60,289 nt of DNA from a virus. The notes under the pieces were generated by a model. It was not told the origin of the DNA. It ran no database searches and saw only the letters and a list, made by a program, of their open reading frames with translations. Of this stretch, positions 20,423 through 39,014 are shown one piece after another. Position 1 is the first letter of the stretch, and each line of letters begins with the position of its first letter. The stretch lies in IMG/VR virus record IMGVR_UViG_3300045963_000139; one strand, given 5' to 3'. The position numbers were made by a program, and so were the translations under genes.

Positions 20423-20423
20423 C

Positions 20424-21992: not shown

Positions 21993-22007
21993 CTCAAGGA
22001 ATCCAAA

Positions 22008-22391: not shown

Positions 22392-22410
22392 TCTCAAGGA
22401 AAAGCAAATC

Positions 22411-23367
22411 ATGGCTACATCTCTCATTCCGTTTGAATCCGCCCAACTACCCGCCCACTTGGCTGGCATCGATGTCAAGGCATTTAACTCTGACCTGACT
22501 GCCCACGCAGGTGCGGGCTTTCCTGTCATCTCCATCAAGGGCAAGGTCTTTGCTGTGGTGCGTGACGGCGAACGTGTGGTTCTGCCCAACCCCAAGGACC
22601 CGGATTCTCCTGCCACCAGCATCGAGGTCGTTCTGGTTAAGGCCAACAAGGACAAGTCCAAGGTCTACTACATCGAGAAGTACGACCCCAACTCCAGCGA
22701 CAAGGCCAAGAAGCCCGACTGCTACTCTGCCAACGGTACGCACCCAGCGGCCGACTCCGAGCACAAGCAAGCTACAAGCTGCGCGGTGTGCAAGTGGAAC
22801 GCATGGGGCTCAGCCGTCAACGAGAAGGGCGTGGCCACCAAGGGCAAGGCTTGCCAAGACTCCGTGCGTATTGCCGTGGTGCCCAACGGCACACTGAACG
22901 ACCCGCATCTGATTCGCGTTCCCCCGGCGTCGATCGCAGCCCTTGGCGAGTACGGCCAGATGTTGGCCAAACGCGGTGTGGCGTACAACATGGTGGTCAC
23001 TAAGATCGTCTTCGATCAGGAAGCCGAGAGCCCCAAGCTGATGTTTAAGCCCATGGGTTTCCTGTCGGCCGAAGACTACGCGATCGTCAAAGAGACGCTG
23101 GAATCCAAGACCGTTGAGTCCATCATCGGTGTGGCCGGTCTGTACGATGGCGCTGACGCTGAGGCACCTGCTCAAGAAACGCCAAAACCTGTGCAAGAGA
23201 CACCCCCACCTGCTCAAGAACCTGAGAAACCTAAAGCCGAGAAGCCCAAGGCAGTCAAGCCCAAGGCCGAACCCAAACCCGAGCCGGTCCCAGAACCTGT
23301 TAAGGTAGTGCCGGTTGTGGATGAAGACCCTGACCTCGACATCGACGGCATCGACTTCGACGACTAA
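22411..23367 (+). CDS. Putative ssDNA-binding protein
   Basis: Cys cluster C-x(20)-C-x2-C-x(21)-C, a long P/E/K linker and an acidic tail DEDPDLDIDGIDFDD typical of SSB C-termini. The function is inferred. Confidence 0.5.
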   Translation: MATSLIPFESAQLPAHLAGIDVKAFNSDLTAHAGAGFPVISIKGKVFAVVRDGERVVLPNPKDPDSPATSIEVVLVKANKDKSKVYYIEKYDPNSSDKAKKPDCYSANGTHPAADSEHKQATSCAVCKWNAWGSAVNEKGVATKGKACQDSVRIAVVPNGTLNDPHLIRVPPASIAALGEYGQMLAKRGVAYNMVVTKIVFDQEAESPKLMFKPMGFLSAEDYAIVKETLESKTVESIIGVAGLYDGADAEAPAQETPKPVQETPPPAQEPEKPKAEKPKAVKPKAEPKPEPVPEPVKVVPVVDEDPDLDIDGIDFDD

Positions 23368-23477
23368 ACCCCCCGGAATCGGACGGGTCATGCCCGTCGC
23401 CGGAACCGTAACCGGCACATCCAATAAAACTTTTTTCTTACCGGGGGCGGTATGCAAGTATCTCAAGGGGGTGTCAC

Positions 23478-26456
23478 GTGGACACCCTGACATTTCTCCA
23501 GACGATTCTGCCCGAGTCAGGATTCAAATTCGTGGTGCTGTTCAAGACCACGTTTCCTTACCCCATACACCGCAGCTTCCAAGACTTGGAAGATATGGTC
23601 GAGGCTATAGCCAACTACAACCGTGACCCGCAGGTTACTGCTGTGTACCACGCATGTTCCAGCTACAAGCTCCCATACGTCGAAGTGGAAAAGGGCGGCA
23701 GGCTCAAGAAGCAGTACCGCAAACCTAACAACTGGCGCTCGGCCAAGTCCTTCTGGCTTGACCTTGACTGCGGCCAAGAGAAGTTCGATGCGGGACAAGG
23801 CTACCTGACCAAGAAAGACGCTGCCGTGGCAGTGTCCAAGTTCGCCGTGGCTGTGGGCTGGCCTCTACCCATGCTGGTATCGAGCGGCAACGGCTTGCAC
23901 GCTTATTGGCCCCTTGTCAGTGCGGTGAACCACACAAGCTGGACCAAGTGCGCTGAACTGCTCAAGGCTGCTGCCAACCTGTATGGCTTGATCGCGGACC
24001 CCACGCGCACGGCAGACTTTGCATCCATCCTGCGACCGGCCGGTACAAGCAACCGCAAGGACCCATCAAACCCGCTCAAGGTCAAGGTCATCCGCGAGTG
24101 CGCGGCCCAAGACGCCAAGACCCTGTACACGGCCATCAAACTGTACGCAGAGACGCACGATGTGGTGATGCCCAAGGCCTCCACGGACGCGCTCGGCGAC
24201 ATGCCAGATTACCTTAAGGGCGAAGCGGTTTCCACTGATCTAGCTGCGCATGCTCCATACGCGAACGCACCTGTGGATGCTGACATCATGGCGAACAAGT
24301 GCCGCCAAGTCGGTGCGGTGCGTAACACAGCCGGGGACGTACCCTACGATCACTGGCGTTATGTAGTCGGGCTACTGACGTTCTGCGAAGATGGGCGCTC
24401 CAAGGCTCAAGACTGGTCCAGCGAACGCGCCAGCACTGGTCACGACAACACCGACTGGGAAACGCGCTACGACTCATGGGAGGGCGGCCCATCCCTGTGC
24501 ACGTCCATCGCCAAATGCAGCCCCAACGGTTGCGTAGGCTGTGAGTTCAAGGACAAGGTAAACACGCCTCTGGTACTTGGTCGCGTCATTCCCATCACAG
24601 TGGAACAGGAAGTCGAAGTGGCCACGGCCACCGAGGCGGTCGAAGTTGTCACTATACCGGCGTACCCACCGGGCTATCAATGGAACAACGGCCTGCTCTC
24701 GCGCATCCTCCCAGACAAGGACGGCATCAACCAAGTCCACAGCTTCACGCCCCACCAGTTCTACCCCACCATGCGTATTCGCGGCGAAGATGGGGCCTAC
24801 AAAATCGGTCTGCGCATGCACCTGCATAACAACCGAATCCGCGATTTTCAAATGCCTTTCGAGGCCATGGCGTCATCCACTGACATCCTTAAATCTTTGG
24901 CGAAATATGAACTCATGCAAACAAATCACCCCAATGCAGGGACGCACCTTACTGCGTACCTTCGAGACTCACTGGAACAGCTTAAGCGGCGTGTTGAAGA
25001 AACAAATACGCTCACGTCTTTCGGTTGGAAGGACGAGATGCGCGGCTTCCTCATCGGTGACCGCTATTACGCAACTGATGGCTCAGTCAAACGAGTTTTA
25101 CTGGGAGGTTACGCGGCACAAAAGCAAGCTGCTCTTACCGCTCCACAGGGCACCTTGGCTGGATACGCAAAGCCGCTCAATTACGTCTATGCCCGCGATG
25201 GCATGGAAAGCCTACAGTACGCTATTTGCTCGGGCTGGGGCTCAATCCTCAACCCCTTCTGTGAAGAGCTGTACTGCGGGCTCCTGCTGGCAATCACGGG
25301 CGGCGATTCCGGCAAGGGTAAGTCGACGGTCGCTTACGCCTCGGTTTACGCGTTTGGAGACTCCAATGCCATGGCGCTCAAGTCGGATGATGCAGGCACA
25401 CGTAACGCGCTTTGGGCGACGGTGGGTGCTTTCAACAATCTCCCGCTCATATTCGATGAGCTTACGGGAGTTGAGGCTGAATGGTTCTCCAACTTCACGT
25501 ACACCCTTTCGCTCGGCGAAGAGCGCGCACGGCTTCAGTCGACTGGCTCGGGTGTAAAGTTTGCCAACCAATCCACGTGGCGCATGAGTCCCTTCGGCAC
25601 GGCCAACAAGGACTTGCACGGGGTGCTGGCAGCCACACAGGCTAACTCCCAAGCGGAAGCCGTTCGCATGGTCCAGATTCACGTGGACAGCTACCCAATC
25701 CCCAAGCTGGAAGAAACCGAAGTCCAGACAGCGCTGGCCCAGATGAAAGCCAATCGCGGTACAGCAGGCGCGGCGTTAATTCAGTACGCTGTCACACATA
25801 CCGAGCAGATTTTTCAGCGTATTCAGGCCAAGGTATCCGAGTTTGTGAAGCACGTGCCGGGGACCAAGTACCGCTTCTACCGCAGCCATGCCGCATGTAC
25901 GCTGGTCGCCGCCGAGATCGCCTTCGAGCTTGGGTTCTCCGAGTTCAGCGTGGAAAAGCTCAACGAGTTTGCGATCGGCCTTATGCAAAAACTAGCTAAA
26001 GAAATCACAGTTAATAACACAGTGTCATCAGACGACGCGTTCAACCGGCTGGTGGCATCGCTCACTGGCGGCATCGTGGTCACGTCAGAGTACCGGGATT
26101 CGCGCAGCTTGTCTGGGGTGGAGAGCCCACGCAACACCCTCAAGGGACCAATTGTTGGGCGCTACGTGCTTGGTACCAAGCATGAGCCAGCGTTCGCCGG
26201 TCGGCTGTTTCTCTGCCAGAAGGCAATGCGTGAATGGTGCATGAAGAACCGCACGGACTTCCAGAACGTGCTGGACCATCTGAGACAGGCAGGTGCCCTT
26301 ATAACGGAAGACGAGCGGGTTACGTTGACGCGCGGTACGGACCTTCCACGGGTGCAACAACGCTGCGTGGTGATCGATCTGCCACAGCTTGAAGCCCATG
26401 GGCCGGTGCTGGTCGTCGACAACACGGCTTTGCCGGGAGCCCAGACTGGTGTATAG
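23478..26456 (+). CDS. Primase-polymerase (AEP) fused to an SF3-type helicase
   Basis: AEP motifs FWLDLDCG and SSGNGLHAYW. Walker A GGDSGKGKST, Walker B LPLIFDELTG. 992 aa. GTG start behind aaggggg. Confidence 0.85.
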   Translation: MDTLTFLQTILPESGFKFVVLFKTTFPYPIHRSFQDLEDMVEAIANYNRDPQVTAVYHACSSYKLPYVEVEKGGRLKKQYRKPNNWRSAKSFWLDLDCGQEKFDAGQGYLTKKDAAVAVSKFAVAVGWPLPMLVSSGNGLHAYWPLVSAVNHTSWTKCAELLKAAANLYGLIADPTRTADFASILRPAGTSNRKDPSNPLKVKVIRECAAQDAKTLYTAIKLYAETHDVVMPKASTDALGDMPDYLKGEAVSTDLAAHAPYANAPVDADIMANKCRQVGAVRNTAGDVPYDHWRYVVGLLTFCEDGRSKAQDWSSERASTGHDNTDWETRYDSWEGGPSLCTSIAKCSPNGCVGCEFKDKVNTPLVLGRVIPITVEQEVEVATATEAVEVVTIPAYPPGYQWNNGLLSRILPDKDGINQVHSFTPHQFYPTMRIRGEDGAYKIGLRMHLHNNRIRDFQMPFEAMASSTDILKSLAKYELMQTNHPNAGTHLTAYLRDSLEQLKRRVEETNTLTSFGWKDEMRGFLIGDRYYATDGSVKRVLLGGYAAQKQAALTAPQGTLAGYAKPLNYVYARDGMESLQYAICSGWGSILNPFCEELYCGLLLAITGGDSGKGKSTVAYASVYAFGDSNAMALKSDDAGTRNALWATVGAFNNLPLIFDELTGVEAEWFSNFTYTLSLGEERARLQSTGSGVKFANQSTWRMSPFGTANKDLHGVLAATQANSQAEAVRMVQIHVDSYPIPKLEETEVQTALAQMKANRGTAGAALIQYAVTHTEQIFQRIQAKVSEFVKHVPGTKYRFYRSHAACTLVAAEIAFELGFSEFSVEKLNEFAIGLMQKLAKEITVNNTVSSDDAFNRLVASLTGGIVVTSEYRDSRSLSGVESPRNTLKGPIVGRYVLGTKHEPAFAGRLFLCQKAMREWCMKNRTDFQNVLDHLRQAGALITEDERVTLTRGTDLPRVQQRCVVIDLPQLEAHGPVLVVDNTALPGAQTGV

Positions 26457-26505
26457 TGCGCGCTGACAGGTGCCTCCCTCCTGTCTCCTTGAGTGATAGC
26501 GATTC

Positions 26506-26533
26506 GCCCCCGGCTTACCCCGGGGGCTTTTTT
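26506..26533 (+). terminator. Rho-independent terminator at the convergence point of the two arms
   Basis: gcccccgg-(cttacc)-ccgggggc hairpin followed by ttttttc. The T-tract overlaps the stop codon of the leftward giant gene. Confidence 0.8.
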
Positions 26534-29500
26534 CATTTTGGAAGCTGATCGATCGCGCGACCGGTTTGCTTTGGCTGGTACTGCACACCGCCCGGGGTCG
26601 TGAACATCTGACGCTTGAGCTGTTCTATCGGCGTCTTCAGGATGTCGGCCAGAGGGGTCGGCCGGTAGCCGCGCTCGACCATTTCCTTGCGTAGATCGTT
26701 CATCTCCTTGATCGCCGTGGACGTGCCCGCTGAACCGCTGCGCGCGTCGTTGTTGTAGCGCTCCTTCAGAATCTCCAGACGGTTCTTGAAGTCTTCCGTG
26801 GACTTAATCATGGCACCGGTTTCCGACTGCATCATGGCCTTGCTGGATGGCTCGAACCCGAAGGCTTCCAGCAGCGCTTCGCCAGCGTTGATGTCCATCA
26901 GCTTGTCGTTCTTGGTGTTGGTTACACCGCCAAGTGTTGGGGCAAAGCCGCCTTCACGCGCACCCTTCATGATGTTGGCAATACCTTGGGGCATCAACCC
27001 TTCGAGGCCCTTGTAATAGTTGCCCACGAACATGTGGTGCAGCGACTGCGCCGCGCGGCCAACGAGCCCGCCGAACGGGCCTGCGGTAACTTGGCCAATG
27101 GCATCTTGCACGCTCTTGCGATCTGTCGGGTCCACGTCGGTGTAAGGCGCAATACCCAGCATGTCGCCGTAGCCGACCTTCTTGGACAGGTCCACACCCA
27201 GCAGTCCGGGCACGCCGCGAAGCAGCAGTTGCGCAATGTGGCGATCACCAACGGCCTTTTCGATCTTGGTTTCCCAGTCTTGGCCATCCACGCCGGTCAG
27301 CCACTTCTGCAGGGTCTGAGACGCGGCGCTGAACGTACCGAACCCGGGCATTCCCAGCGCGCCGCCCAGCACACCGACGTGGGCCAAGGTGTACACCAAG
27401 TGGCGTACAGCGATCGAGCGCTCGGCCGGGTCAGCGTTCTTCAGGTTGCCCATCATTTTGACCATCTGAGTGAGCTGCACCAACTGGAACTTGCGGAACT
27501 GCAATGCCACCTTGCCAAAGCCGTTGTTGAACACCCGGGGCGCATTGGCGCGGCTGTGGTCACCGTGAGTCTCAGCCACCACGTCACCCGCGTAGTGCAG
27601 AGCGCGCTCAGCATCTCCATGCTTGGCAAACTCCAGCCGGTAAGCGGCTGCAGCGCTGGCCAACCGGTTCAAAGATTCCATCTTCAACGAGGCTTGGGCA
27701 ACGCGATCGGCTGCCGCTTGCGCTGCGCGAGTCGCCATGTTCTTGGGCCGCAGCTCCATGGAGCCGTACTCAGTGTTCATGCCGATGTCCAGACGACCCA
27801 GCTCCAGCAAACGCTGCATGGGTGCCCGCACGTCAGCAGGCATGTCTGACACCTTCAGGGTGTCGAGCAAACCAGTTTTGCCAAGGATGTCACCGATCTC
27901 TTTGTATGCCTTGAAGAACTCACTGGTTGCCTTACCGTACCCATGGTGCGCTTGCAAGTAGGGCAGCGTCATCGTCCACGGCTGCATCAAGTTGCCAATG
28001 AAGTGCGCTGGGCTTGTTGCGATCTGCCAGAGGGCAGTTGCCTTGGTGATCTTGTTGGCCCAAGGGGTTGGCACCGCGTTGACACTACCTTCGTGGCGTA
28101 GCATGAACTCGTCGTATATGTGCAACTTTGTCGTGCGATCTTCACCCTCACCGCTGTCAGCCTGCTTGTAGGCCTTCTTCAACTGGGTAAGCATGGCATC
28201 GTTGTGCGTGATGCCAGCGATAAAGTGCGCGTCACCCTTGGCTTGCTGCTTGAACGAGCCCACCATATCCATGGTGCCGTGAACACCCATGCGGCGCATC
28301 TCGGCTTTGCGGGACGACGACTGACTCAGCGCATCCAACCACATATTGGTCAGCAAGCGGGCCGAGGTTTTGTACTTCATCCGGTCAGCTTCAGCCGGGG
28401 CTTCTTGGCTTAGCTTTTCCAGTTGGTGACGCAGCCGCGACATACCGGCCAGCACACCCTTGCCGCCGTTCAGTTCGGTTTGCCAGTCTTCCTTTGGCTT
28501 GTAGTAGGTGTGGTCCTTCGTGGCGGGAAAGCCCGCATCGCGCATGTTCTGACGCAACGCCTTGGACTCTTGCTCACTCTGGGCTTCCGACACAAGGTAG
28601 TGCTGCGGGTCCGTCACCAGATCGTACAGCGCCTTCTTGTCTTCGCGGGTTGCGCCGTCGCGGCTTGCACGCTCTTCAGCACGCAGGTAAGCGTCCGACT
28701 TGCCCACGACAACCCAGTCACCGTGGCGGCGCGCGGGCACGTAGGGTTTACCCTCGCCAATCTGCATGAGGGTGTTGTACTTCTTCATGAAGCCGTTCTT
28801 CTCGGCCAGAATCTCTTCGCGCTCTGCGCCGGTCGTACCCTTGAGCATGTCGTCGTACAGCTCGGCAGCCTTTTTCTCGATGACGGCTTTCTTCTCTTTG
28901 AGAATTTCATCGCCGTGGGCGAACATGGCCTTGGCCACCGACTGGGCTCGATCGGATAGCTGGTCGAACATCACCTTGGCTTTGCCGGTCGCCTTGGGTC
29001 CGTAGCCCCACTCACCGTTCAGGGTGCTGTGCTGCAGGAACGCGCTCAAACCCGTCTTCTCTTCCTGTGTGAACTTGCGCACCGGCTCGATCGCATTGAA
29101 CGCCATCTTCTGGAAGTGACCGGCCAGCGCATCACGGGCTTCGCGTAGCGTGTCGTAGTGCTCCAGTGCAGTGAGCCCCTTGGCCACGCCTCGCGCCACC
29201 AGATCGCGGGTAAATACCACGTGGTTCAGCGCATCCCCGGCCCAGCGGTTCAGACGGTCGGTGATCGTGCGCGCGGGCTCTTGCAGATGGTCGGGCAGCC
29301 GGGAGATGTTAGCGGCAACGGTTTTGCCAAACTTCACGCCATGCAAGTCTTGCTCGACGTCGCCGCCCGGATGGGATGCAACACGCAGGATGTTCCTGTC
29401 ATTGAAAATGATGGTGTTGTGCGTACGCTCGCGCTTGACTATTTGGTAATCGCTCGGCTTAGCTTGGTTAAGCTCTTCCAAACGCATTCTTGCGTCAGAG

Positions 29501-32500
29501 ACCGAAGCGCTATTGGGGCCGTCAGATGCCTCCAGATGTTTTATGTCTTTGCGCAGCCCGGCCATTGCAATCTTGCGAGCGGGTTCAAACTGGATACCGC
29601 TCATTAGTCGCTGCATGAGAAAATAGTCCGGGCGGTCATTACCCACATAATTCACCGCCGAAATATCCGGCCCACGACTTTGGCTGTCGTAGAACTTGGT
29701 GCCCTTCACGCCCAGCGAGTTCAGATATTCAGCAGCGGCTCGTTTGGCGTGCCCATGGTCAGGGGCGTCGTCAAATATGCCGTCTTCGATAGCGCGAGCC
29801 AGCAGCCCGTCTTTACCAAAGTGCGAGTCTGGGCTACCAACAAAATCGTGGCCAGTGATTTCATCACGGTCAATGTTTGCTTGGTCCAGCATGTCGTCAA
29901 GGTAAGACGTCACTTCCCCGGGTAGCTTCTTGTCCATCTTGTCCAGCAACTCATTCAGCACATTGCGCACGTGCTCATGCTGCTTGGCTACGGGCAAGTC
30001 TGACATCATCATGGCGTTGTCGGGGACCGTGTGGTCTACGCGCATCAAATTGCCAATGCTGCGCTGATTGAAATTCAGCCGTTCAATTTCCCCGGTGTCG
30101 TGGTTCACGACGTCGATGTAATCAACTCCGGCTTCCAGCAGTTTCTTTGCGAGTTTGCCGGGGTTAAAGTCACCCAACTGCGCGTCTTTTGGAATCAACT
30201 CTGAGCGGTTTACGGGGTGCAAGATTTCATCCTTGGGGTACCAGTCGGCGTATTTTTCCAACTGGTCAGTGACGGATTTTTTCCACTTGGCCATCACGTC
30301 GCGCACGTGGTAATCCGAGCCGATGCCTTGGCGCTTTGCTATGTACGCCGCGCCCCAGCCGTAGGCTTGCGCACCCTCGCCGGTACCAACAAACTTACTG
30401 TTGAACTTGCGAAAAGCTGCAGCGGTGCCATGCCAGTTGCCTGCCACTTCCAGCCGCGCTGCGCCGTAGGCCATATTGACCATATCCTCGGCGGTCAACT
30501 TGTTGATGTCCTTGCCCCGCATAACCCGGCGGATGGCATCTTTGAACGCTGCGTAAATCTGGCGAATGAGGCTGGCAAACCGGCCGTCGTACCCTTTAAG
30601 TGCAGTCGGTTCCACACCGCGCTTCAACGCTACTTGTACAAAATACGCTACTGCTTCGTTGGCTTCTTGGTGGGGCTTTGTCCCCGCCATAAACACGTGG
30701 GATAGGGCTTCCCGCGCGATTTCTGACTCTTTGGAGCCATCAGTCCGAGCTGCCCACTCCTTGATAGCTTCATGGATGCGGTCAATCTTCTCTTTGCCCA
30801 GAATGCGGTCCAGCCCCAAGTGAGAGCCTACTTCGTGGAGAAATGCCCCCTTGCCGTCACCCCGAGAAATGCGGTCGGCAATCATAACGACACGGCCATC
30901 TTTGGCCCACCCAAACGGGCTGCCCTTGCTAAACGCGTAGCCAAGGTCTTGCAAATCTGTCAGGTCGGTGGCGGTGTCCACGATCTTGATGTGGCGTGGA
31001 AGTTCCTCAACGTTCATCCATGCGGCTATCTCGTCGTGCAGTTCTTTACCAGACTTGTATGGGTCCGTGACCGCATCGCCTTTGCCGTACGCAACGTCAT
31101 CCGAGTTACCGGCCAACTTATCGTCGCGAACAAGTGCTTCACCGTCGTCAGGCGCATCCAGACCGTCACGCTTGTCGTACAGGGCTTGGCGCTCGGCTTC
31201 CAGCTTGGTAACTTGCTTGGCGTTACCTGCCTCTTCGGCATCGTTGATCTTGTCGTTCAGAGCTTCGATCTGGTCGTCGATTGAAACTTCATCGGCGGCT
31301 TCCTTTTCTTTCTGCTCTTTGTCCGCGTCCTTCTTGACGGACTCATCCAGACGCTTCTTGTACACGCGCTCCAACGCATGTATCTGGTCGGTCAGCTCGT
31401 CGAATAGCTTGGTGTTGCCAGCTTTCTGAGCCTTGTTGCGCTCCATTTCAAGGCGGCTGCCTTCTTTCAGGATTTCCAAATCTGTCGAGTGGATGTCGAT
31501 GCCGCGCGTCTCGGCGCGACCTTGTTTCTTGGCCTTCTCTTCGGCGTCCTTCTTTTCAGCCGCAGCGGCGTCGGCGGCGATCGCCTTGGATTGCTGGCCT
31601 TCCGCTTCGGCTTCAGCTTTGGTCTTGACGCCCATGTTGTCCGCGCCATGCACTTGCATGCCACCACCGGCCATCAGTTCCTGCTTTTCACCAGCCGACA
31701 AGTTGTCATCCATGGCAGACGACACGCCACCGTCTTGGGCGATGGCCGCTTCGGTCTTGCGCTGCACCGCTTTACCTTGGGCAATGTCCAAGGCTTCCTT
31801 CATGGCACGGGCTTCGTCGGGTGTGATCTTGCCATCGTTCATCGCAGCGTCGATGCGTTCGGCCTTGATCTTGTTGATGTACTTCTGCGGCGTGGTGTGG
31901 TGCACACCCTCACGTGTGGCCATAGCTTGCCAGTTTTCACCATTCGCGGCTGCATGCAGGCGTGTACCGGCCAGCTCACCGAGGGCGGCGATGAAGCGCT
32001 CCACAGGTGGAATCTTGGTTGTCTCAGCGGCCGTCTGCTTCGCTTCGGCAGCACGCTGTTCAGGGGTCTTGGCAGCTTCGGCAGCGGCTTCTTCCTCTTG
32101 GCGTTTGCGCGACTTCTTGGCGTCTTCAGCCGTTTCGATGACCGGGGCCGCGTGTTCACCTACCTGCTCGATGGGTACGCCTTGGTTGACCGCAGCCTGC
32201 GCCGGGGCCAGTTCTTCGGCTTTCACTACGCGCTTCGGAGCTTCGCCGGTCTTGGGTAGCTCACCACGTGCGCCCATGGGGAACAGGTGCTTCTGGCCCG
32301 TCTCTTTGCCAAGGTTCGGGCGCATGTTGTCCGTCTGCTCGGGCGCGGCGGGCTCTTCCGGCAGGTGCCACTCAGGATGTGGAACACCGCTTGGGTGTTC
32401 CAAGTGGAAGTCGGGGCGCGGCGCTTCGGGCGGGCGCACGGGTGCCGTGGGTATCGGGGCAACGGCCGGTTTCTGGCCGACCTCGACAGGGGCGAGCTTG

Positions 32501-34554
32501 CCCGTGTTTTCGTGGCCGGTCGCAGTGCGCGAAGCTACTGGAGCCTTGGGAACACCGGCATTTCCGCCAGCCACAGGCGGCTGCACGCTGGGTGCAGGCT
32601 CTCCGGTGCCAGTACGAACTCCCCCGGATTCGCCAGAGACAGGTACTCCAGCTCCCACGCTTCCTGCTGGCTTATTACCCCCAGCTCCACCCACTCCTGC
32701 ATTTCCGGCTGCAGCCAATCCAGATGTGCCGTCATTTGAGCCTTTCAGTCGGTCAATTTCCAGTTGTGCTGCGCCTAGTTTACCGGACTTAAGCGCTTTA
32801 ACTAAAGTCTCGGCTTCCGCACTTTCGAGGTCAATACCGGCAGCAACAGCTTGCTCAGCCAGCGGGCGCACTGAGGCTTGCTTTTTCTTGCCGATACCGA
32901 TCGCTTTGAGAGTGTCGTCCAACTTCAGACCTGACAGCTCTTGCTCGGGCGTTACGACCGGCGCAACGGGAGGCGGTGGGGGCGGTGTCTCGACCGCAGG
33001 AGGCGGTGCAGTTTCTGCTGCACGCTGAGCCAAGAAACGCTGCTGGTTCGCATCTCCCAGCAACTTGTCGGAACGGACTTGCTGCCCTTCCATCCACTTT
33101 TGCGCGGGTGCGGCACCAACCAATGCGCCAACTTCTGGTTGCACAGCTTTGGCAGCGTCTTCCATTTGCGTTGCGCGTAGCAAATCAACTGGCTGAGTAG
33201 GGTCGCTCAAGTGTCGGCCCAGTTGCGCGCGACGGCCCGAGTCCTGCAACTGGTGGTAACCAGCAAGCGGAGCCATCATGGCACCCATGTACAAACCGGC
33301 TTGCGCACCGCCCAGAGCGGCGTCGCCCACATCTTCTGGAGCTCCACCGGCCGCGTTATTGTTGGCTGCAGACAGCGCGCCTTGAGCGGCCATACCTGTG
33401 GCTTGCGTTGCTTGGTTGACGCCTTCGTTGGTCGCAAAGCGCTTCATGAACTGCGGGTTCGTAACCATCTGGGCAGCTTGGTCGGCCGTCAGCTCTCCAC
33501 CGGACACTGCTTGGCGCAAACGTTGAATACCGGCGTAGGCACCCCCGTTCGCCATAATGCGACCACCGGCAAAGCCGAGGGCGGCTTGCGTGCCGCCGCT
33601 GATAAAGAACTGCCGCCAGCCAGCTTGATTGGCTTGGTCCTGTGGAACGCCTTGCTTAATCAGGGACTCGTACGTGTTCTGTGCGTCAGACGCGCCAAAT
33701 AAGGGAGCCACGACGCCCACATCCATGGCAGCGGCGACTTCCGGCATACCGGCTGCGGTGAGCCCCACGTTGGCAGCGGCGATCGGAACGGCAAGTCCAG
33801 CGGAACGCGCGTTGTTGATAAATCCAGACGCAACGGTACCGTGGCCGAGGGTGTCGGCTGGCTGGTCAGTACCGAGAAACCGGTCTGCTGCGCCGCCAGC
33901 ATTTTGCAAAGACTGACCAATCCCGGGAGCACCGGCCCACGTTGCTGCTTTACCGAGGGTATCGAGCCCACCACCGGCTACGCCGCCGAGGAACTGTTTG
34001 CCGGTTTCGTACGCCGCATGGCCCGCGCCACGGTCAATACTTGACAGGTACTGCTGCACATCAGACGCGTTGACCATCCGAAAACCGGGTTTTAGGTTTG
34101 TCGGCGAAACACTCTGGTGCCCGTTGGTTTGCAATAGGTTGGCAGCCATCGTGGGGTTATCCCCCATCGGCACAACCGTGTCGCCCACTTGAAGCTCGTT
34201 ATTCGGCCCGATGCCGTAGGTCGGCTGCGTGGATGGCGTTGTCGGCTGCTGCCCATACTGGGCTTGCATCTGCTGCAGCATCTGTGCATTGTGCTGAGCG
34301 ATCTGTGTTGCGTAGTCAGGCGGCGCGTCGGCTGTCGGGCCGGGAGTGCCGGGGCTCACCGTATTCCAGAACTGAGGCCCCATGGCTTGGTTGTTCTGCT
34401 GCGCCAGCGGAGTGAGGCCAGCGCTGGTAGGCTGCGGGCCGCGAGGTATCGAAGGGTTCTGCGGAACGCCAAGGATGGCGTTGTTTGCACTCCCGCCACT
34501 CAGGTTACTGGATGCGAAAGCGTTTGAATCCTTCGCGGCGGGGTTCATGGCCAT
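26533..34554 (-). CDS. Giant multidomain virion-associated (polyvalent-type) protein, 2673 aa
   Basis: Uninterrupted 8-kb ORF, the last gene of the structural arm, with RBS aaggac. Carries low-complexity G/A/Q, poly-Pro and K/E coiled-coil segments, an HEVGSH motif (30820-30837), the module NWHGTAAAFRKFNSKFVGTGEGAQAYGWG...FYDSQSRG...IIFNDRNILRV (about 29395-30438), and a helical C-terminal region. Confidence 0.85.
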   Translation of the reverse strand: MAMNPAAKDSNAFASSNLSGGSANNAILGVPQNPSIPRGPQPTSAGLTPLAQQNNQAMGPQFWNTVSPGTPGPTADAPPDYATQIAQHNAQMLQQMQAQYGQQPTTPSTQPTYGIGPNNELQVGDTVVPMGDNPTMAANLLQTNGHQSVSPTNLKPGFRMVNASDVQQYLSSIDRGAGHAAYETGKQFLGGVAGGGLDTLGKAATWAGAPGIGQSLQNAGGAADRFLGTDQPADTLGHGTVASGFINNARSAGLAVPIAAANVGLTAAGMPEVAAAMDVGVVAPLFGASDAQNTYESLIKQGVPQDQANQAGWRQFFISGGTQAALGFAGGRIMANGGAYAGIQRLRQAVSGGELTADQAAQMVTNPQFMKRFATNEGVNQATQATGMAAQGALSAANNNAAGGAPEDVGDAALGGAQAGLYMGAMMAPLAGYHQLQDSGRRAQLGRHLSDPTQPVDLLRATQMEDAAKAVQPEVGALVGAAPAQKWMEGQQVRSDKLLGDANQQRFLAQRAAETAPPPAVETPPPPPPVAPVVTPEQELSGLKLDDTLKAIGIGKKKQASVRPLAEQAVAAGIDLESAEAETLVKALKSGKLGAAQLEIDRLKGSNDGTSGLAAAGNAGVGGAGGNKPAGSVGAGVPVSGESGGVRTGTGEPAPSVQPPVAGGNAGVPKAPVASRTATGHENTGKLAPVEVGQKPAVAPIPTAPVRPPEAPRPDFHLEHPSGVPHPEWHLPEEPAAPEQTDNMRPNLGKETGQKHLFPMGARGELPKTGEAPKRVVKAEELAPAQAAVNQGVPIEQVGEHAAPVIETAEDAKKSRKRQEEEAAAEAAKTPEQRAAEAKQTAAETTKIPPVERFIAALGELAGTRLHAAANGENWQAMATREGVHHTTPQKYINKIKAERIDAAMNDGKITPDEARAMKEALDIAQGKAVQRKTEAAIAQDGGVSSAMDDNLSAGEKQELMAGGGMQVHGADNMGVKTKAEAEAEGQQSKAIAADAAAAEKKDAEEKAKKQGRAETRGIDIHSTDLEILKEGSRLEMERNKAQKAGNTKLFDELTDQIHALERVYKKRLDESVKKDADKEQKEKEAADEVSIDDQIEALNDKINDAEEAGNAKQVTKLEAERQALYDKRDGLDAPDDGEALVRDDKLAGNSDDVAYGKGDAVTDPYKSGKELHDEIAAWMNVEELPRHIKIVDTATDLTDLQDLGYAFSKGSPFGWAKDGRVVMIADRISRGDGKGAFLHEVGSHLGLDRILGKEKIDRIHEAIKEWAARTDGSKESEIAREALSHVFMAGTKPHQEANEAVAYFVQVALKRGVEPTALKGYDGRFASLIRQIYAAFKDAIRRVMRGKDINKLTAEDMVNMAYGAARLEVAGNWHGTAAAFRKFNSKFVGTGEGAQAYGWGAAYIAKRQGIGSDYHVRDVMAKWKKSVTDQLEKYADWYPKDEILHPVNRSELIPKDAQLGDFNPGKLAKKLLEAGVDYIDVVNHDTGEIERLNFNQRSIGNLMRVDHTVPDNAMMMSDLPVAKQHEHVRNVLNELLDKMDKKLPGEVTSYLDDMLDQANIDRDEITGHDFVGSPDSHFGKDGLLARAIEDGIFDDAPDHGHAKRAAAEYLNSLGVKGTKFYDSQSRGPDISAVNYVGNDRPDYFLMQRLMSGIQFEPARKIAMAGLRKDIKHLEASDGPNSASVSDARMRLEELNQAKPSDYQIVKRERTHNTIIFNDRNILRVASHPGGDVEQDLHGVKFGKTVAANISRLPDHLQEPARTITDRLNRWAGDALNHVVFTRDLVARGVAKGLTALEHYDTLREARDALAGHFQKMAFNAIEPVRKFTQEEKTGLSAFLQHSTLNGEWGYGPKATGKAKVMFDQLSDRAQSVAKAMFAHGDEILKEKKAVIEKKAAELYDDMLKGTTGAEREEILAEKNGFMKKYNTLMQIGEGKPYVPARRHGDWVVVGKSDAYLRAEERASRDGATREDKKALYDLVTDPQHYLVSEAQSEQESKALRQNMRDAGFPATKDHTYYKPKEDWQTELNGGKGVLAGMSRLRHQLEKLSQEAPAEADRMKYKTSARLLTNMWLDALSQSSSRKAEMRRMGVHGTMDMVGSFKQQAKGDAHFIAGITHNDAMLTQLKKAYKQADSGEGEDRTTKLHIYDEFMLRHEGSVNAVPTPWANKITKATALWQIATSPAHFIGNLMQPWTMTLPYLQAHHGYGKATSEFFKAYKEIGDILGKTGLLDTLKVSDMPADVRAPMQRLLELGRLDIGMNTEYGSMELRPKNMATRAAQAAADRVAQASLKMESLNRLASAAAAYRLEFAKHGDAERALHYAGDVVAETHGDHSRANAPRVFNNGFGKVALQFRKFQLVQLTQMVKMMGNLKNADPAERSIAVRHLVYTLAHVGVLGGALGMPGFGTFSAASQTLQKWLTGVDGQDWETKIEKAVGDRHIAQLLLRGVPGLLGVDLSKKVGYGDMLGIAPYTDVDPTDRKSVQDAIGQVTAGPFGGLVGRAAQSLHHMFVGNYYKGLEGLMPQGIANIMKGAREGGFAPTLGGVTNTKNDKLMDINAGEALLEAFGFEPSSKAMMQSETGAMIKSTEDFKNRLEILKERYNNDARSGSAGTSTAIKEMNDLRKEMVERGYRPTPLADILKTPIEQLKRQMFTTPGGVQYQPKQTGRAIDQLPK

Positions 34555-34563
34555 ATCAAGTCC

Positions 34564-36246
34564 TTATTGGGGAATCCCTTGCTTGGGTATCGATTTGAAG
34601 TCTAACCCAACTTGAGGCTTGCCGCCCGCATTTGTGGGGATGAACATCATGGTGGAGCGATCGGGCGAGTAGACATACATGCCAGTGCCCATCGGGTCGG
34701 AAACGGCTTTGAGGCCGTGCTGTTCGAGCGTTGCCTTCATGAGTTCCATGTTGCTTGACACCAGCGCTTTGCTGATCTCACCTTGGATTTCCATGTTCTT
34801 CAGGCGCTCGGCTGGGCCCGCCTTGGCATTTGCTTCGGCTGCAGCAGCTTGGAACGCTTGGTTGTACGCCATGGCATTCTTCATAGTCAAGTCGCGACCG
34901 GCCGGTGCTACCTTGGCATACAGCATGTGTGCAAGATCGACAGGCGTGCCGGGTTGGGCCACCATCTGCCCTTGGGGTGTGTACAGAGCGTACTGCCCGT
35001 TGCCTACAGTGTGGATGACCAGTGGTGTTTGAGTGTTCTGGGCCATGGACTGAACCATCTGGCCAAGGGCTCCCATGTTGCCGTTTTCCACGGCGCGCGT
35101 AGCCTGCAGCATGTTGTTGCTGAAAATCTGCTGGTGCACTTGCTGGCCGGTGGATTGAACTTGTTGCAGTTGAGCAAAGGCTTGGTCGCGCTCTTGTGGC
35201 GTAGCTGCGTTGTTGGCCTTGAACTGCAGCAGCTTGTACTGTTGCTGGAGTTGCAGCAGTTGCAGATGCGCCGCGTCCGAGTCGAAGTTGTAGTCCGCAC
35301 CTTGGGTGCCGTCAAACGTTTGGCCCGGTCCTTGCGGGGTGACGGGCGCTGGCTGGGGTGCCGCAGCTTGTTGGGGCGCAGCGCCTTGTGGAACGGAGGC
35401 AGCTTGTGGTGTTTGCGCAGTTTGTGACGTGCCAGATGTGGAAGCGCCGCCCGCAGCAGCCAAGCGCGCCTGAATGTTCTTCATCTCGCTGTTAAGGATT
35501 AACAGTTGGTCCGCTTTGGCTTTGCTATCCGGCGACTTGTTTGCGCGCGCTATTTCTCGCTGAATGCCTTCAAGGTCGCCTTGCAGACGAGTTACGTCTG
35601 AGTTTCCCGCTGCCGGTTGAGATGGAGCAGAAGCAGTTGCCTCGGGGCCAACAACGGATGGGTTATTCGCAGCGTTTTTATCGGCTTGCCCGCGTACGGA
35701 CGCAGATTGGTCGCTACGAAGCGCCGCGAGGCGTTTTGCCGATGCAGCTAAAGCAGCACTCCCGACACGGGGTGACGATTTGAGTTTGTCGTAGACAGCT
35801 TGCTCGGCCGCTACTTTTGCGTTCCATTTATCAGCAGGCTGGGCAGTGCTTCCAGCCCACGCGCCATTGGGGTTCGGGGGTTTAACTTCTTGGTCACCTT
35901 GAGCACCACCGCTGCGTCCACCCCATGTGGGTGTAGCAGGCTGGGCAGGAACTCCGTTGACGGGGTCACCGGGACCGGCCAAGGTTTGACGCCCGCTGGT
36001 GGGTTCCGCTGGTGCACTAGCTCCACTACCGCTTGTTGCATCAGAAGTGGGGGACGCATCAAGGCCAGCAGAAGATGCTGGCGGCAGATCGGTATTCGCC
36101 GTGGGGAAGCCGCTGGCCGTGCGGTCTTGCATGTTCGAGGCGCGGTCAGCAAGGTACTGACGCTGTTGGTCATCCAGCGTTTTCAGGTTCTGCATGCCCT
36201 TGGTGAAGGCATCGCTCGAAGACTGGTTGGCGTATTGAAGGTCCAT
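34564..36246 (-). CDS. Low-complexity Q/A/P/G-rich virion protein, putative internal or ejection protein
   Basis: 560-aa ORF with tight spacing to its neighbours. Function inferred from position. Confidence 0.6.
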   Translation of the reverse strand: MDLQYANQSSSDAFTKGMQNLKTLDDQQRQYLADRASNMQDRTASGFPTANTDLPPASSAGLDASPTSDATSGSGASAPAEPTSGRQTLAGPGDPVNGVPAQPATPTWGGRSGGAQGDQEVKPPNPNGAWAGSTAQPADKWNAKVAAEQAVYDKLKSSPRVGSAALAASAKRLAALRSDQSASVRGQADKNAANNPSVVGPEATASAPSQPAAGNSDVTRLQGDLEGIQREIARANKSPDSKAKADQLLILNSEMKNIQARLAAAGGASTSGTSQTAQTPQAASVPQGAAPQQAAAPQPAPVTPQGPGQTFDGTQGADYNFDSDAAHLQLLQLQQQYKLLQFKANNAATPQERDQAFAQLQQVQSTGQQVHQQIFSNNMLQATRAVENGNMGALGQMVQSMAQNTQTPLVIHTVGNGQYALYTPQGQMVAQPGTPVDLAHMLYAKVAPAGRDLTMKNAMAYNQAFQAAAAEANAKAGPAERLKNMEIQGEISKALVSSNMELMKATLEQHGLKAVSDPMGTGMYVYSPDRSTMMFIPTNAGGKPQVGLDFKSIPKQGIPQ

Positions 36247-36254
36247 GGTCAGTC

Positions 36255-37169
36255 CTAAGCAGGTGCGTTGGCTGGTTGTTTCGTGCCCGACCAGATGTCA
36301 AAAGCCTTGGTCGCAGCGCTTCCCAGATCGGCGTTCGTCTGATTGTCGGAAGTCTGTTTGGCGTTCTGGTCACTGCCGAGGGAGTCATACGCATCCAAGT
36401 TTTTCGGGGTGAGTAGTCCAGCGCCAAGGCCTTCTTGGCTTGCCATCTGACCTTGACCGGCAGCATAAGCTGTCGTCTCGGCGTTGCGGTTGCCAAAGCT
36501 CTGCTGTTGCATGGCCGAGTCGTACATCGGGTCGCCGGGTTTGTAGCCTTGCTGCTGAAGTGTCTGTTGCAAGTGCGACGTGGCATTGGCGCTGGCACCC
36601 TTGGCTGCCGCCTCGGCGTTGTTGGCAAGGAACGGAGCTTGGTTAATCAGCGAGTTACCCACAGCCGCGTTACCGGCGTTTCCTGCGACGGCCGCGTTGT
36701 ATCCGGCCGACTTGGCAGCCGAAGGCGCATTTTGCTTGGTGAGGGCGAGCCCTGCTTGCACCATGGGGTTAATAAACGACGGGTTTTTCTTAAGGTAGTC
36801 CGCACCTTGGCTTAGCAAACCTGCACCGCCCGAGTCAGCCGCGCCAGAGCCCACCGCAGAGCCGATACTGGCCCCATTCGTTAACCCGCCATAGTCGCTA
36901 CCAAGCCCTGCAGATGCAGCGTTGATACCATCCAGCGAAGTCGTGGACATCGGCATGAGCCCCGCGCTTGCTTGGTTGACGCCGTCCAGCGTAGTCGTGT
37001 TGAACGGTATTCCGCCAGAGTAGGACGCCAGCCCGGGCGAGCTACCGTCACCAGTAAACAAACTGCCAAGGGCAGAACCGGCGTTGCTTGCCGTTTGCCC
37101 AAGCACATCCCCAACACTTGAACCGGAGTCGCCTGTAAACCAATCAACAAAAGGGTCCCACCAAGACAT
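36255..37169 (-). CDS. Low-complexity G/A/S/N-rich virion protein
   Basis: 304-aa ORF with RBS aaggaaa. Confidence 0.6.
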   Translation of the reverse strand: MSWWDPFVDWFTGDSGSSVGDVLGQTASNAGSALGSLFTGDGSSPGLASYSGGIPFNTTTLDGVNQASAGLMPMSTTSLDGINAASAGLGSDYGGLTNGASIGSAVGSGAADSGGAGLLSQGADYLKKNPSFINPMVQAGLALTKQNAPSAAKSAGYNAAVAGNAGNAAVGNSLINQAPFLANNAEAAAKGASANATSHLQQTLQQQGYKPGDPMYDSAMQQQSFGNRNAETTAYAAGQGQMASQEGLGAGLLTPKNLDAYDSLGSDQNAKQTSDNQTNADLGSAATKAFDIWSGTKQPANAPA

Positions 37170-37178
37170 AATTTTTCC

Positions 37179-39014
37179 TTATCGCTGCATGGCAGCAGGC
37201 GTGTGATATTTGCGCACGATGTTGTCGAAAAACTCTTTGCCTTTCGTGGCCACCACATCGGCAGGGATGACGTACTCGCCGTTGCTGACGTTTACTGGCT
37301 GCCCATTGCTGGAGTTCTTGGTGTGGATAGAGTCGCTGGTTCCGGTGCCCGGGCCATGCAACATGCCGCCGTTGGCAAACGCGCCCGGGCGATCGCCGTG
37401 CTGAGAGGCTTGAGCCGCACCCATGAGAGCCATGCAGATGCGCTGATCGAATTGCATCGGCAACTGCTGCGCATCCGGCAGGTTGGCTTGGATAGCGAAC
37501 TGGCGCAACTTGGGCCAGAGTTCGGGGTGCTGCATAGCCGACTGCGCAAGTTGACCCATCATCTGGAGCTGCTGCGGATTGAGTTGCCCGGACTGGATGG
37601 CTTGGGTTATGTGCGCCTGCATGGCCTGCATCACTTGCGGGTTTGCCATAGTGTTCTGGACGTGGAGCTGCGCAAGGGCGGGGTGCATGGGTGTAGGTGC
37701 TTGTGCCATAGGTTGTCCTTGCGGAAGTTGGAGCCCCGGGGCTTGTGAGAAACCTTGATCGGTAGCCATGCCGCCGTCGGCTGCTGAAGCGGACGAGCCG
37801 AAACCGCCCGTGGACTGGTCGCCACCAGAAGTTGTTTCGGTGTGCTGCATCTGCGAGTTGTTTGAGCTACCGCCAAAGCTCCCACCGCTACTTCCGCCAG
37901 AGGTACCAAAAGTAGGTGACTCAGAATAGTACCCCCCCTGCGGCTGGTAATACTGCCCAGTTGGGTTGTGGTTCATATCGTACGCAGCGCCGGTAGCAGT
38001 GTCGTAGTAACCTTCAATTCTTTGCCCGTTTCGGCCACCGACTTCAATGTTTGCGAAGTTAACCGGCGTAGGCGCGGGAGTAGGCGCGGGAGTAGGCGCG
38101 GGAGTCGGGGCAACGGTCGGAGCTTGCGTGATGGCGGCAGCCTGTTGCGCTTGGGCTGGGTCCGTCGACATCGGGTTTGCCGCGATGCTGGCACCAGTCG
38201 GAGTTGTAGTAGGAGCGCCCGGGTCTGTGTTTCCTGCGTTGTAGCCACCACCGAACAGGCCTGCAGCGCCGGGAGTGTCCAGCGTCTTCTGCATGGTAGT
38301 TTTCGACGGGCCTCGGTCAGAGCCGTCAGGGGCTGTATTGCTCAGTCCTTGGTATGCGTTCGACGCTTCGGTAGGTGTGTCGTACCCGCTTGTGGGGCCG
38401 TTGATAATACCTTGTGCTTGCGCGTTGTTGATCGCGTTATTAAGAAGCCCATACCCTACCGCACCTAAAAGCCCCTTGGGGTTCCAATTTAGCGGGTTTT
38501 GCGCGGCATTTTCTAACGAATCCGTGATCGAGGGCACTAAATTTGCATCGGTCACCGGGCCCGCCATTGTGTCAACGTACCCGCCTTGGGGGGAAAGGTT
38601 TTCGCCAACGTCCGTTCCGCTGTACTGAGGGTTGCCGTTGGCATCAGTTCCGTTTTTCTGGATGTCGAGCGGCGCGCCGGTCGTCGGGCTCATACCGAAC
38701 TGGTCTTTGGCAGGGCCGACGTTATTGCTAGAAGGTGGTGGTGAAATATCAGGAGCTTGTATGATGGAGCCCATCTGAGCACCAAAATTCATCGGGCCAA
38801 GGTTGACGCCACGCAACCAGTCGTCGCGGTAGGTGGTCGTGTTGGGGTCTACGTCAGCGCTCCATATACTTTTTGCCTGTCGGTCAGAGGCTTGAGAATC
38901 AACCCCGTCGCGCGCTTCTCGGATGTTGCCGCCGTCAGCGTATGAAAGCCCGAGCACGGGACCGCCGTCAGCGTACCGACGTGATGCATTGGTGTTTTGT
39001 TGGGTACGTGCCAT
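37179..39014 (-). CDS. Low-complexity virion protein with a conserved-looking C-terminal motif
   Basis: 611-aa ORF with RBS ggag. (PTPA)n run. C-terminus reads GPGTGTSDSIHTKNSSNGQPVNVSNGEYVIPADVV. Confidence 0.6.
   Translation of the reverse strand: MARTQQNTNASRRYADGGPVLGLSYADGGNIREARDGVDSQASDRQAKSIWSADVDPNTTTYRDDWLRGVNLGPMNFGAQMGSIIQAPDISPPPSSNNVGPAKDQFGMSPTTGAPLDIQKNGTDANGNPQYSGTDVGENLSPQGGYVDTMAGPVTDANLVPSITDSLENAAQNPLNWNPKGLLGAVGYGLLNNAINNAQAQGIINGPTSGYDTPTEASNAYQGLSNTAPDGSDRGPSKTTMQKTLDTPGAAGLFGGGYNAGNTDPGAPTTTPTGASIAANPMSTDPAQAQQAAAITQAPTVAPTPAPTPAPTPAPTPVNFANIEVGGRNGQRIEGYYDTATGAAYDMNHNPTGQYYQPQGGYYSESPTFGTSGGSSGGSFGGSSNNSQMQHTETTSGGDQSTGGFGSSASAADGGMATDQGFSQAPGLQLPQGQPMAQAPTPMHPALAQLHVQNTMANPQVMQAMQAHITQAIQSGQLNPQQLQMMGQLAQSAMQHPELWPKLRQFAIQANLPDAQQLPMQFDQRICMALMGAAQASQHGDRPGAFANGGMLHGPGTGTSDSIHTKNSSNGQPVNVSNGEYVIPADVVATKGKEFFDNIVRKYHTPAAMQR

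Follow-up and report, generated by a model that had tools for sequence, protein, structure and literature searches.

The stretch analyzed here, IMG/VR virus record IMGVR_UViG_3300045963_000139 (60,289 nucleotides in full, hereafter the window), carries one giant gene at the distal end of its structural operon, a single open reading frame (ORF) of 2673 codons with an ATG start at 26533-34554 on the minus strand. Its product joins a variable N-terminal leader to a putative zincin-like HExGxH peptidase module, a long module related to ADP-ribosyltransferases (ARTs), an LPD39-like region and a PLxRFG tail domain. The protein probably belongs to the class of packaged or ejected polyvalent proteins, and we put at about 0.6 the probability that it is a large internal virion (ejection) protein of polyvalent build, at a position like that of T7 gp16 or N4 gp50.

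A frame of this length is far beyond chance, and three public contigs carry the identical protein, each time called as a single gene. The gene starts 9 nucleotides beyond the stop codon of the upstream gene (34564-34566) and is preceded by an AAGGA box. It belongs to the operon of the structural genes, stands last among the minus-strand genes and takes 13.3% of the genome. A sequence-only reading of the window had described a single 2673-residue ORF that ends the structural operon and fills 13% of the genome, and the ORF, the operon position and the measured share agree with that description. Between the giant gene's stop codon and a convergent primase gene lies a 76-nucleotide spacer that holds a G+C-rich hairpin. 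With an 8-bp stem of G+C only, a T-run on the plus strand and an A-run ahead of it, this hairpin is likely the shared terminator of the convergent replication and structural operons. A 124-residue ORF that overlaps the stop codon (26162-26536, minus strand) was considered as a downstream coupled gene and rejected, as it lies on the strand opposite the 3' end of the primase gene, has an R/S/T/C-rich translation of non-coding appearance and is omitted by the public gene call.

To place the protein among its relatives, residues 1150-1760 were scanned against 1.84 billion cluster representatives. The scan returned 1959 matches, 158 of them below 1e-30; most are 2300 to 3000 residues long and have the module near residues 1000-1600. 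By BLAST coverage, residues ~1170-2673 are common to about 120 of the representatives, while the N-terminal 1150 residues find matches in a handful only. A second search, with a family profile, gave 476 proteins below 1e-10, many on 56- to 62-kb contigs and almost none with Pfam annotation. Sequence comparison thus divides the giant protein into a variable leader and a conserved body of 1500 residues.

Nothing in Pfam, PHROGs or NCBIfam matches the leader (residues 1-1150), and phmmer adds two relatives, P0035 and P0121, that match most of this region. Its composition by 100-residue blocks follows the G/A/Q-rich, G/P/V-rich and A/E/K-rich segments of the sequence-only reading (Table 1). The first 150 residues, almost free of charge, are probably disordered. 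That reading had taken the whole N-terminal ~530 residues for low-complexity sequence; the composition fits, but low complexity is not all there is, as residues ~150-520 form a domain that recurs in 10 of 214 related giants, and iterated hidden Markov model (HMM) searches with these residues never went beyond those 10 relatives. The most hydrophobic stretch of the entire protein, at residues 252-291, is a candidate for membrane activity, and 161 of the 214 relatives have a similar G/A-rich stretch of hydrophobic residues, at a median of 203 residues from the N terminus. Residues 534-800 have homologues only in the closest relatives, P0035 and P0121.

The body begins with the peptidase module, in which HEVGSH occupies residues 1240-1245 (H1240-E1241-x-G1243-x-H1245; nucleotides 30820-30837). 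HExGxH is found in all 113 representatives longer than 2000 residues. In an alignment of 239 sequences W1267, E1276, E1300 and Y1304 are invariant or nearly so, with E1300 (239/239) and Y1304 strictly kept; E1300 falls within a predicted helix (1294-1311) and is a candidate third zinc ligand. An AlphaFold2 (AF2) model places the motif inside a helix at 1234-1251 and gives the order helix, three short strands, motif helix, two inserted helices and E1300 helix, with a predicted local distance difference test (pLDDT) score of 75 to 90. This order matches the zincin core described for polyvalent proteins (PMC5512222), and we infer that residues ~1160-1345 adopt a zincin fold. The observation that the motif is HExxxH and not the canonical HExxH agrees with Iyer et al. 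2017, who include an HEXXXH set among the peptidases of polyvalent proteins (PMC5512222). The family HMM aligns the region with the canonical HEAFH of phage POI1126 gp30, and the alignment opens a gap of one residue within the motif.

Behind the peptidase lies a module that the sequence-only reading had described as recurring in very large multidomain proteins of phages and conjugative elements, giving it ~350 residues and no name. The module is related to Pfam ART-PolyVal, at a score that is below threshold in this protein. The motifs which that reading had quoted, NWHGT...YGWG at residues 1373-1401, KGTKFYDSQSRG at 1617-1628, NTIIFNDRNILRV at 1713-1725 and, in the tail, HLVYTLAHVGVLGG... at 2385-2406, all lie where it had placed them, in residue and nucleotide numbering alike. 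PF18760 (ART-PolyVal, of the Tox-ART-HYD2 clade) scores 13.3 bits (E 0.15) on the giant protein, over residues 1374-1417 only. On the same module of relatives it scores 22 to 28 bits (E 1e-5 to 1e-6), with weak matches to DUF3990 as well, all sub-threshold, and a precomputed PF18760 annotation stands on 12 of 33 first-round homologues. Foldseek against BFVD finds proteins named ART-PolyVal-like at E 1e-7, with TM-scores of only ~0.2.

Four elements, separated by variable inserts, define the ART-like family: HG[ST]..F..F....G.GEGAQAYG.G.Y.A, then G.L.RVD.......LDWD.P...Q, then YL...GI.GI.F.D..SRG, and last T.N.V.FND.NI.RV. The conserved residues of the giant protein are H1375-G-T, G1392-E-G, Y1404, D1623-x-x-S-R, N1713 and F1717, and the counterpart of the second element is N1522-D1527 (NLMRVD). 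Two large inserts, at residues ~1406-1520 and 1630-1707, lengthen the module; the second amounts to 78 residues more than in relative P0003. Conservation across the 239 sequences is 98% for H1375 (230/235), 97% for Y1404 (231/237), 95% for D1623 (225/238), 96% for N1713 (227/237) and 95% for D/E1719. In the AF2 model H1375 lies in a predicted strand and Y1404 in the next. The polyvalent ART family of Iyer et al. 2017 has its His in strand 1, its Tyr in strand 2 and its Asp in strand 5 (PMC5512222). D1623 could be the catalytic residue of the module. So, by our own alignment with H-Y-E enzymes, could N1713, which there takes the position ahead of the hydrophobic strand. Whether the module has true ADP-ribosyltransferase chemistry we judge, from its sequence, to be an even call.

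The last ~900 residues comprise the LPD39-like region and the PLxRFG "tail-700" domain. The latter scores 234 bits against NCBIfam NF032893 (E 3e-69, model positions 26-632 of 681) and so passes the curated cut-off of 100 bits. It ends 60 residues short of the stop codon, a placement kept in phage and phage-plasmid relatives. NF032893 marks the giant proteins of Bcep22-, PEp14- and POI1126-like podophages. The Pfam LPD39 model (PF18858) gives no match at E up to 10 on residues 1740-2000; the LPD39 domain of POI1126 gp30 scores 201 bits, and the giant protein's link to LPD39 is transitive only, through POI1126. AF2 models the tail as almost purely helical, with one small three-stranded sheet (pLDDT 71, predicted template modeling score 0.59). 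Together with a conserved hydrophobic helix pair inside the PLxRFG domain, this is what had been foreseen, a helical C-terminal part of ~900 residues with hydrophobic stretches. Upstream of these helices stands ALQFRKF, which we take, on our own reading, to be the counterpart of the motif that names the PLxRFG domain.

PHROGs and tblastn match only the C-terminal ends of the giants of 55- to 63-kb podophages, the phages matched through the tail being Parlo, POI1126, PEp14, Pavtok, Skulduggery, Itty13, LASTA and Rhizobium phages. The family HMM aligns ~900 residues with POI1126 gp30 (E 3e-139) and with the giant of Rhizobium phage RHph_TM3_14A (E 1e-112). A plasmid collection yields seven tail matches, all in records typed as non-mobilizable: four records of 59 to 87 kb, which look like phage-plasmids, two 2.17-Mb Neisseria records, which are apparently chromosomes, and one of 425 kb.

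A closer look at individual relatives shows what is constant and what is not. POI1126 gp30 (4841 residues) carries a cell-wall hydrolase, an M15 peptidase, a pyrophosphatase, an Eco57I methylase, a SNF2 helicase, LPD3 and an HExxH peptidase, which is followed directly by LPD39 and PLxRFG. The RHph_TM3_14A giant (2307 residues) has a pyrophosphatase, a HEATH motif at residue 1141 and the tail block from residue 1310. In the giant of Aromatoleum anaerobium LuFRes1 (2366 residues), HEVGEH and the PLxRFG tail are present and the ART module between them is absent or replaced. The peptidase and the tail are thus constant in the three HMM-aligned proteins (window protein, POI1126 gp30 and Aromatoleum giant), and by this comparison the segments upstream of the peptidase, and between peptidase and tail, are exchangeable. 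The LuFRes1 gene comes from a cultured isolate (locus L011, NZ_WTVG02000039.1, 6410-13510) and lies on a 716-kb contig, so it is probably part of a prophage; that prophage is a possible experimental system.

Evidence linking the protein to virions comes from other phages. With residues 1150-1760 as query, tblastn matches 42-kb Autographiviridae (Bp-AMP1 to Bp-AMP4, RS-PI-1 and RS-PII-1); the genes concerned bear the annotations internal virion protein, structural protein P5 or transglycosylase. In Burkholderia phage Bp-AMP1 the order is tail tubular protein B, two internal virion proteins and gp40 (1665 residues), which puts gp40 at the position of T7 gene 16. The N-terminal region of gp40 is annotated as endolysin (putative transglycosylase in sister records), and it is followed by a G/A-rich hydrophobic stretch, HEVGVH, a compact ART-like module of ~165 residues and a long helical C terminus. 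Comparison of the family profile with gp40 by hhalign gives 99.2% probability (E 6e-20) over 306 columns. The mid segment of the giant protein also matches phrog_873, a "head and packaging" family. JC1 gp69, a Bcep22-like giant of 4515 residues, was detected in cesium chloride-purified virions by 51 unique peptides as the second-best-scoring protein (PMC9144972), and giants of this kind appear among the putative ejection proteins listed by Casjens and colleagues. In N4 gp50, which gives the nearest mechanistic parallel and is ejected as beads on a string, a membrane-active N-terminal domain precedes the cargo, an HExxH domain (C1) and a large helical domain without known relatives (C2).

Table 1. 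Features of the giant gene and of the structural operon, in window coordinates
Feature	Residues	Position	Strand	Remarks
Giant ORF, 2673 residues plus stop codon		26533..34554	-	ORF reading, motif placement, public gene calls
AAGGA ribosome-binding site, 6 nucleotides 5' of ATG		34561..34565	-	read from sequence
Q/N/P/S/T-rich N terminus, almost no charged residues	1-150	34105..34554	-	
G/A-rich N-terminal domain	~150-520	32995..34107	-	
Moderately hydrophobic G/A-rich stretch	252-291	33682..33801	-	maximum Kyte-Doolittle 1.47
Poly-proline hinge	517-533	32956..33006	-	
Small helical stretch, then G/P/V-rich linker	534-800	32155..32955	-	
A/E/K-rich charged region	801-1150	31105..32154	-	composition; candidate coiled coil of the sequence-only reading
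Putative zincin-like metallopeptidase module, HExGxH (HEXXXH) type	~1160-1345	30520..31077	-	
Module related to ART-PolyVal, ~360 residues	~1370-1735	29350..30447	-	
LPD39-like region, aligns with LPD39 domain of POI1126 gp30	1758-1905	28840..29283	-	21% identity
PLxRFG "tail-700" domain (NF032893)	1988-2613	26716..28593	-	almost entirely alpha-helical (predicted)
Conserved G/A-rich hydrophobic helix pair inside PLxRFG domain	2381-2411	27322..27414	-	
G+C-rich hairpin between convergent giant and primase genes, T-run on plus strand		26506..26527	.	
Large terminase		58980-60287	-	
Portal-like protein		55784-57898	-	
Major head protein		47645-48562	-	
Two tail-fiber paralogues		43345-45290	-	
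Internal virion protein (phrog_511)		39382-41718	-	
Three genes (611, 304 and 560 residues)		34564-39014	-	

The window begins and ends with an exact 127-bp direct repeat (1-127 and 60163-60289), which makes it very probably a complete genome of ~60.16 kb; the repeat is a terminal one or else an overlap left by circular assembly, and the start of the terminase gene falls within it. The genome is probably that of an uncultured ~60-kb podophage. Across 50,697 phage records there is no nucleotide match for the giant gene or for the left 25 kb, and among cultured phages those most closely related are the Rhizobium phages RHph_TM3_14A, TM27A/B and TM29 (portal 35% and polymerase 33% identical). On the plus strand (15542-26456) lie genes for a family A DNA polymerase, an exonuclease, a SNF2 helicase encoded on its own (20424-21992) and a 992-residue DUF927 primase-like protein. 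Replication genes that converge on a distal giant gene are kept in four related ~60-kb metagenomic contigs and in RHph_TM3_14A. The order primase, 318-residue protein and SNF2 helicase is kept beside the giant gene in relatives; the RHph_TM3_14A primase homologue is annotated "putative integrase," which looks like a mis-annotation. In a 64-kb contig of an Alteromonadaceae metagenome-assembled genome (L007), no more than ~7 kb separates the major head protein gene from the midpoint of the giant gene downstream of it, so its structural gene order differs from that of the window.

For the three genes between the internal virion gene and the giant gene there is no Pfam match, and PHROGs match one short stretch only, tape-measure-like and at the C terminus of the 611-residue protein. 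Their conservation in related contigs is not detectable; they are candidates for smaller ejection proteins. Homologues of the 778-residue internal virion protein are POI1126 gp21 ("virion-associated component") and, in RHph_TM3_14A, a protein of 593 residues; the window protein of 778 residues also has a weak, sub-threshold match to the ubiquitin-E1 FCCH domain at residues 167-212. The tail-fiber genes (43345-44355 and 44331-45290) have a common N-terminal domain of ~100 residues (phrog_8469, phrog_6427) and diverge downstream of it, which suggests two receptor-binding specificities on one adaptor. Elsewhere on the plus strand, a 385-residue protein (8926-10083) strongly matches the HNH endonuclease family phrog_1314 (E 3e-78).

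These data suggest how the protein would work. Made late, it would be packed into the capsid by means of its conserved tail and expelled through the phage tail after the smaller internal proteins. The C-terminal ~900 residues, with LPD39-like region, PLxRFG domain and hydrophobic pair, would act as a chassis, serving first for capsid entry and then in a trans-envelope ejection complex. The N-terminal ~1150 residues would form a long, flexible and partly membrane-active leader, which together with the hydrophobic helices may aid crossing of the inner membrane or anchoring in it. Once delivered, the putative HExGxH zinc peptidase would most likely cleave its own polyprotein, releasing modules, or else a host protein. 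In the manner of T4 Alt, the ART-like module may draw on NAD+ and modify a host macromolecule within the first minutes after infection begins. We infer packaging from the gene's position, the mass spectrometry of JC1 gp69 and the presence of the cassette in a protein at the gp16 position; the proposed peptidase and ART-like activities follow from the invariance of their motifs. A role against host defenses may be part of the same picture.

Several results weigh against this interpretation. The mass-spectrometric evidence belongs to JC1 gp69, which is neither from this phage nor from a close relative. T7 gp13 to gp16 and N4 gp50 to gp52 have no tblastn match in the window, the family HMM finds no match in gp50, and hhalign of gp50 residues 2100-3500 with the C-terminal block gives 0.3%, in a comparison whose single-sequence template has low power. 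No Pfam or NCBIfam peptidase model matches the HExGxH region. Apart from the weak ART-PolyVal match, Pfam yielded nothing above noise, whether searched with the whole protein or, at E up to 10, with seven segments of it. Neither of the two AF2 models has a significant neighbor in the PDB by Foldseek (best E 0.046 and 0.57), and PDB sequence searches, with a single sequence and with the family profile, found none; the fold assignments thus rest on motifs and secondary structure. The ART-PolyVal score falls short of the gathering score of 31.2, and a profile comparison with one canonical ART-PolyVal domain aligns only the N-terminal 48 columns (probability 24%). Residues 1346-1401, the most conserved region of ART motifs, have pLDDT below 50. 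Lastly, in our own alignment to PARP1, the invariant N1713 presumably takes the place of the catalytic Glu/Asp of H-Y-E/D transferases, and with Asn at that position the chemistry may differ or be weak.

Some of these results would also fit residues 1370-1735 being another enzyme, such as an NADase or a nucleotide-binding or -processing enzyme, with only an N-terminal strand-helix-strand-helix in common with ARTs. The similarity to ART-PolyVal is indeed limited to the N-terminal half of the model (~8-98 of 140 in relatives) and to the 48 profile columns, the C-terminal half is marked by D-x-x-S-R and N-x-[VI]-[VI]-F, invariant motifs of its own, and no ART structure appears among the PDB fold-search matches of the AF2 model. 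We nevertheless consider this alternative unlikely, as the Pfam matches that do appear are to ART-PolyVal and DUF3990 and the BFVD neighbors are annotated ART-PolyVal-like. DUF3990 we take to be a member of the same ADP-ribosyl clan as ART-PolyVal. The pattern H-G-[ST]...F...G-x-G-x-x-Y-x-A, with strands behind it whose last residue is polar and then a hydrophobic strand, also seems to us to resemble the H-Y-E/D core.

Somewhat less likely still is a purely structural protein of the ejectosome or internal core, whose enzyme-like modules would be degenerate pseudo-enzymes, spacers or interaction surfaces. Such a protein would account for the lack of any enzyme model above its curated threshold, for the low-confidence model of the ART motif region, for the Asn which our own alignment would put at the acid position, and for a chain that is mostly helical or disordered, like T7 gp15/gp16 and N4 gp51. 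It sits poorly with HExGxH in 113/113 long representatives and E1300 in 239/239 sequences. H1375, Y1404, D1623 and N1713 are kept at 94 to 98% in a family only ~30 to 40% identical overall, a pattern that is active-site-like and not spacer-like, and the cassette is gained or lost as a whole, as would be expected of cargo.

A late cytoplasmic effector or toxin that is never packaged, acting for example in superinfection exclusion or host shut-off from inside, is improbable. It draws on the packaging of the giant protein being deduced from indirect evidence and gains from the suggestion of Iyer et al. 2022 that a role as toxin or virulence factor is also conceivable for HYD2-type ARTs. Yet the gene is co-oriented with, and tightly coupled to, virion genes, its type of C-terminal domain has been detected in virions by mass spectrometry, and the cassette is present in an internal virion protein at the gp16 position. 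A DarB-like antirestriction protein that shields incoming DNA by methylation and helicase activity, as the top PHROG (phrog_10089, "DarB-like antirestriction") and the same label on many tblastn matches would have it, can be set aside almost entirely. The alignment to phrog_10089 is confined to profile positions 4053-4571 of 4647, the part that corresponds to the PLxRFG tail. Searches of the giant protein at E up to 10 gave neither a methyltransferase nor an SNF2 or other helicase domain, where POI1126 gp30 has Eco57I and SNF2, no Pfam, NCBIfam or PHROG match to the methyltransferase/helicase domains of P1 DarB occurs in the giant protein, and this phage encodes its SNF2 helicase apart. A tape-measure reading was rejected for want of any supporting domain.

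Returning to an ejected polyvalent protein, a broader reading can be offered, speculative and in our view unlikely: the series HExxxH, insertion site, LPD39 and PLxRFG may be a general delivery chassis of podophages, carrying here an undescribed branch of NAD+ enzymes. If so, this chassis would be equivalent in function to N4 gp50 C1-C2 and the helical body of T7 gp16, and a single fixed site would take exchangeable cargo, an ART-like module in this protein, none in POI1126 and another in the Aromatoleum prophage. The cargo, with its H-Y-N center and D-x-x-S-R loop, would then have a chemistry or target unlike those of known ARTs, candidate targets being host RNA polymerase, an NAD+-dependent defense or nucleic acid.

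Few parts of podophage infection are as poorly understood as the giant ejection proteins, and this family has many members on ~60-kb contigs of uncultured phages, all without curated annotation. Already described are polyvalent proteins, the HEXXXH variant, ART cargo, LPD39, the PLxRFG tail and the giant virion proteins of ~60-kb podophages. What is new is the architecture of leader, HExGxH peptidase, long ART-like module, LPD39-like region and PLxRFG in well over 100 metagenomic cluster representatives, the lack of DarB-type domains in such a giant, and the occurrence of the same peptidase and ART-like pair in gp16-position proteins of T7-like phages. The pair is compact and strictly conserved and lies between a variable leader and a conserved helical tail. 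As the cassette is also present in gp40 of the cultured 42-kb phage Bp-AMP1, the role of injected enzymes can be tested in a tractable system. The widespread label "DarB-like" reaches such proteins only by way of the PLxRFG tail and is an error in their case.

A close general model is that of the polyvalent proteins (PMC5512222), in which at least two unrelated enzymatic domains are joined, encoded in phages beside virion genes and organized around a zincin-like hub that includes the HEXXXH variant. The giant protein joins HExGxH, ART-like, LPD39-like and PLxRFG domains, and its gene sits among virion genes as the last of the structural operon; every family-level analysis, including the curated PLxRFG cut-off, upheld the initial view that it is of polyvalent type. 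ART domains are the commonest protein-modifying cargo of polyvalent proteins (PMC5512222). In the window protein, by contrast, the ART-like module is below the Pfam threshold and has two large inserts, and the ~1150 N-terminal residues match no described domain.

Among giants of known phages, those of Bcep22-like, PEp14-like and Namazuvirus podophages (Bcep22 gp75, JC1 gp69, POI1126 gp30 and Pavtok gp27) likewise end the structural module of 55- to 63-kb genomes and have the same C-terminal ~900 residues (LPD39 and PLxRFG) behind a zincin-like peptidase, with only ~22% identity left in the common part. The window protein is shorter (2673 versus 3700 to 5000 residues), lacks their cell-wall hydrolase, pyrophosphatase, methylase and SNF2 helicase, has HExxxH where they have HExxH, and carries an ART-like cassette between peptidase and LPD39. 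N4 gp50 is also a giant encoded distal to the structural genes and converging on replication genes, and it has a like order of membrane-active N terminus, cargo, zincin-motif domain and large alpha-helical C terminus; the window protein differs in having no RNA polymerase module (no polymerase model matches) and in its HExxxH motif, where gp50 has HExxH. Like T7 gp16, it is the largest and last of its series, following the phrog_511 internal virion gene and three further genes, but Pfam and NCBIfam model searches found no lysozyme or transglycosylase, as the sequence-only reading had said, and gp16 gives no tblastn match. T4 Alt, an ART packaged in the head and injected with the DNA to modify host proteins early, is the functional model; it is a small stand-alone myovirus protein of the R-S-E clade, whereas the window module is of H-Y type and lies within a giant. 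Another close counterpart is Bp-AMP1 gp40, of the phrog_873 type. Its ART-like module is compact and free of inserts, its N terminus is annotated as endolysin and its C terminus fails the PLxRFG model, but both proteins have a G/A-rich hydrophobic stretch upstream, the same HE-V-G-x-H peptidase followed in the same order by an ART-like module, and a long helical C terminus.

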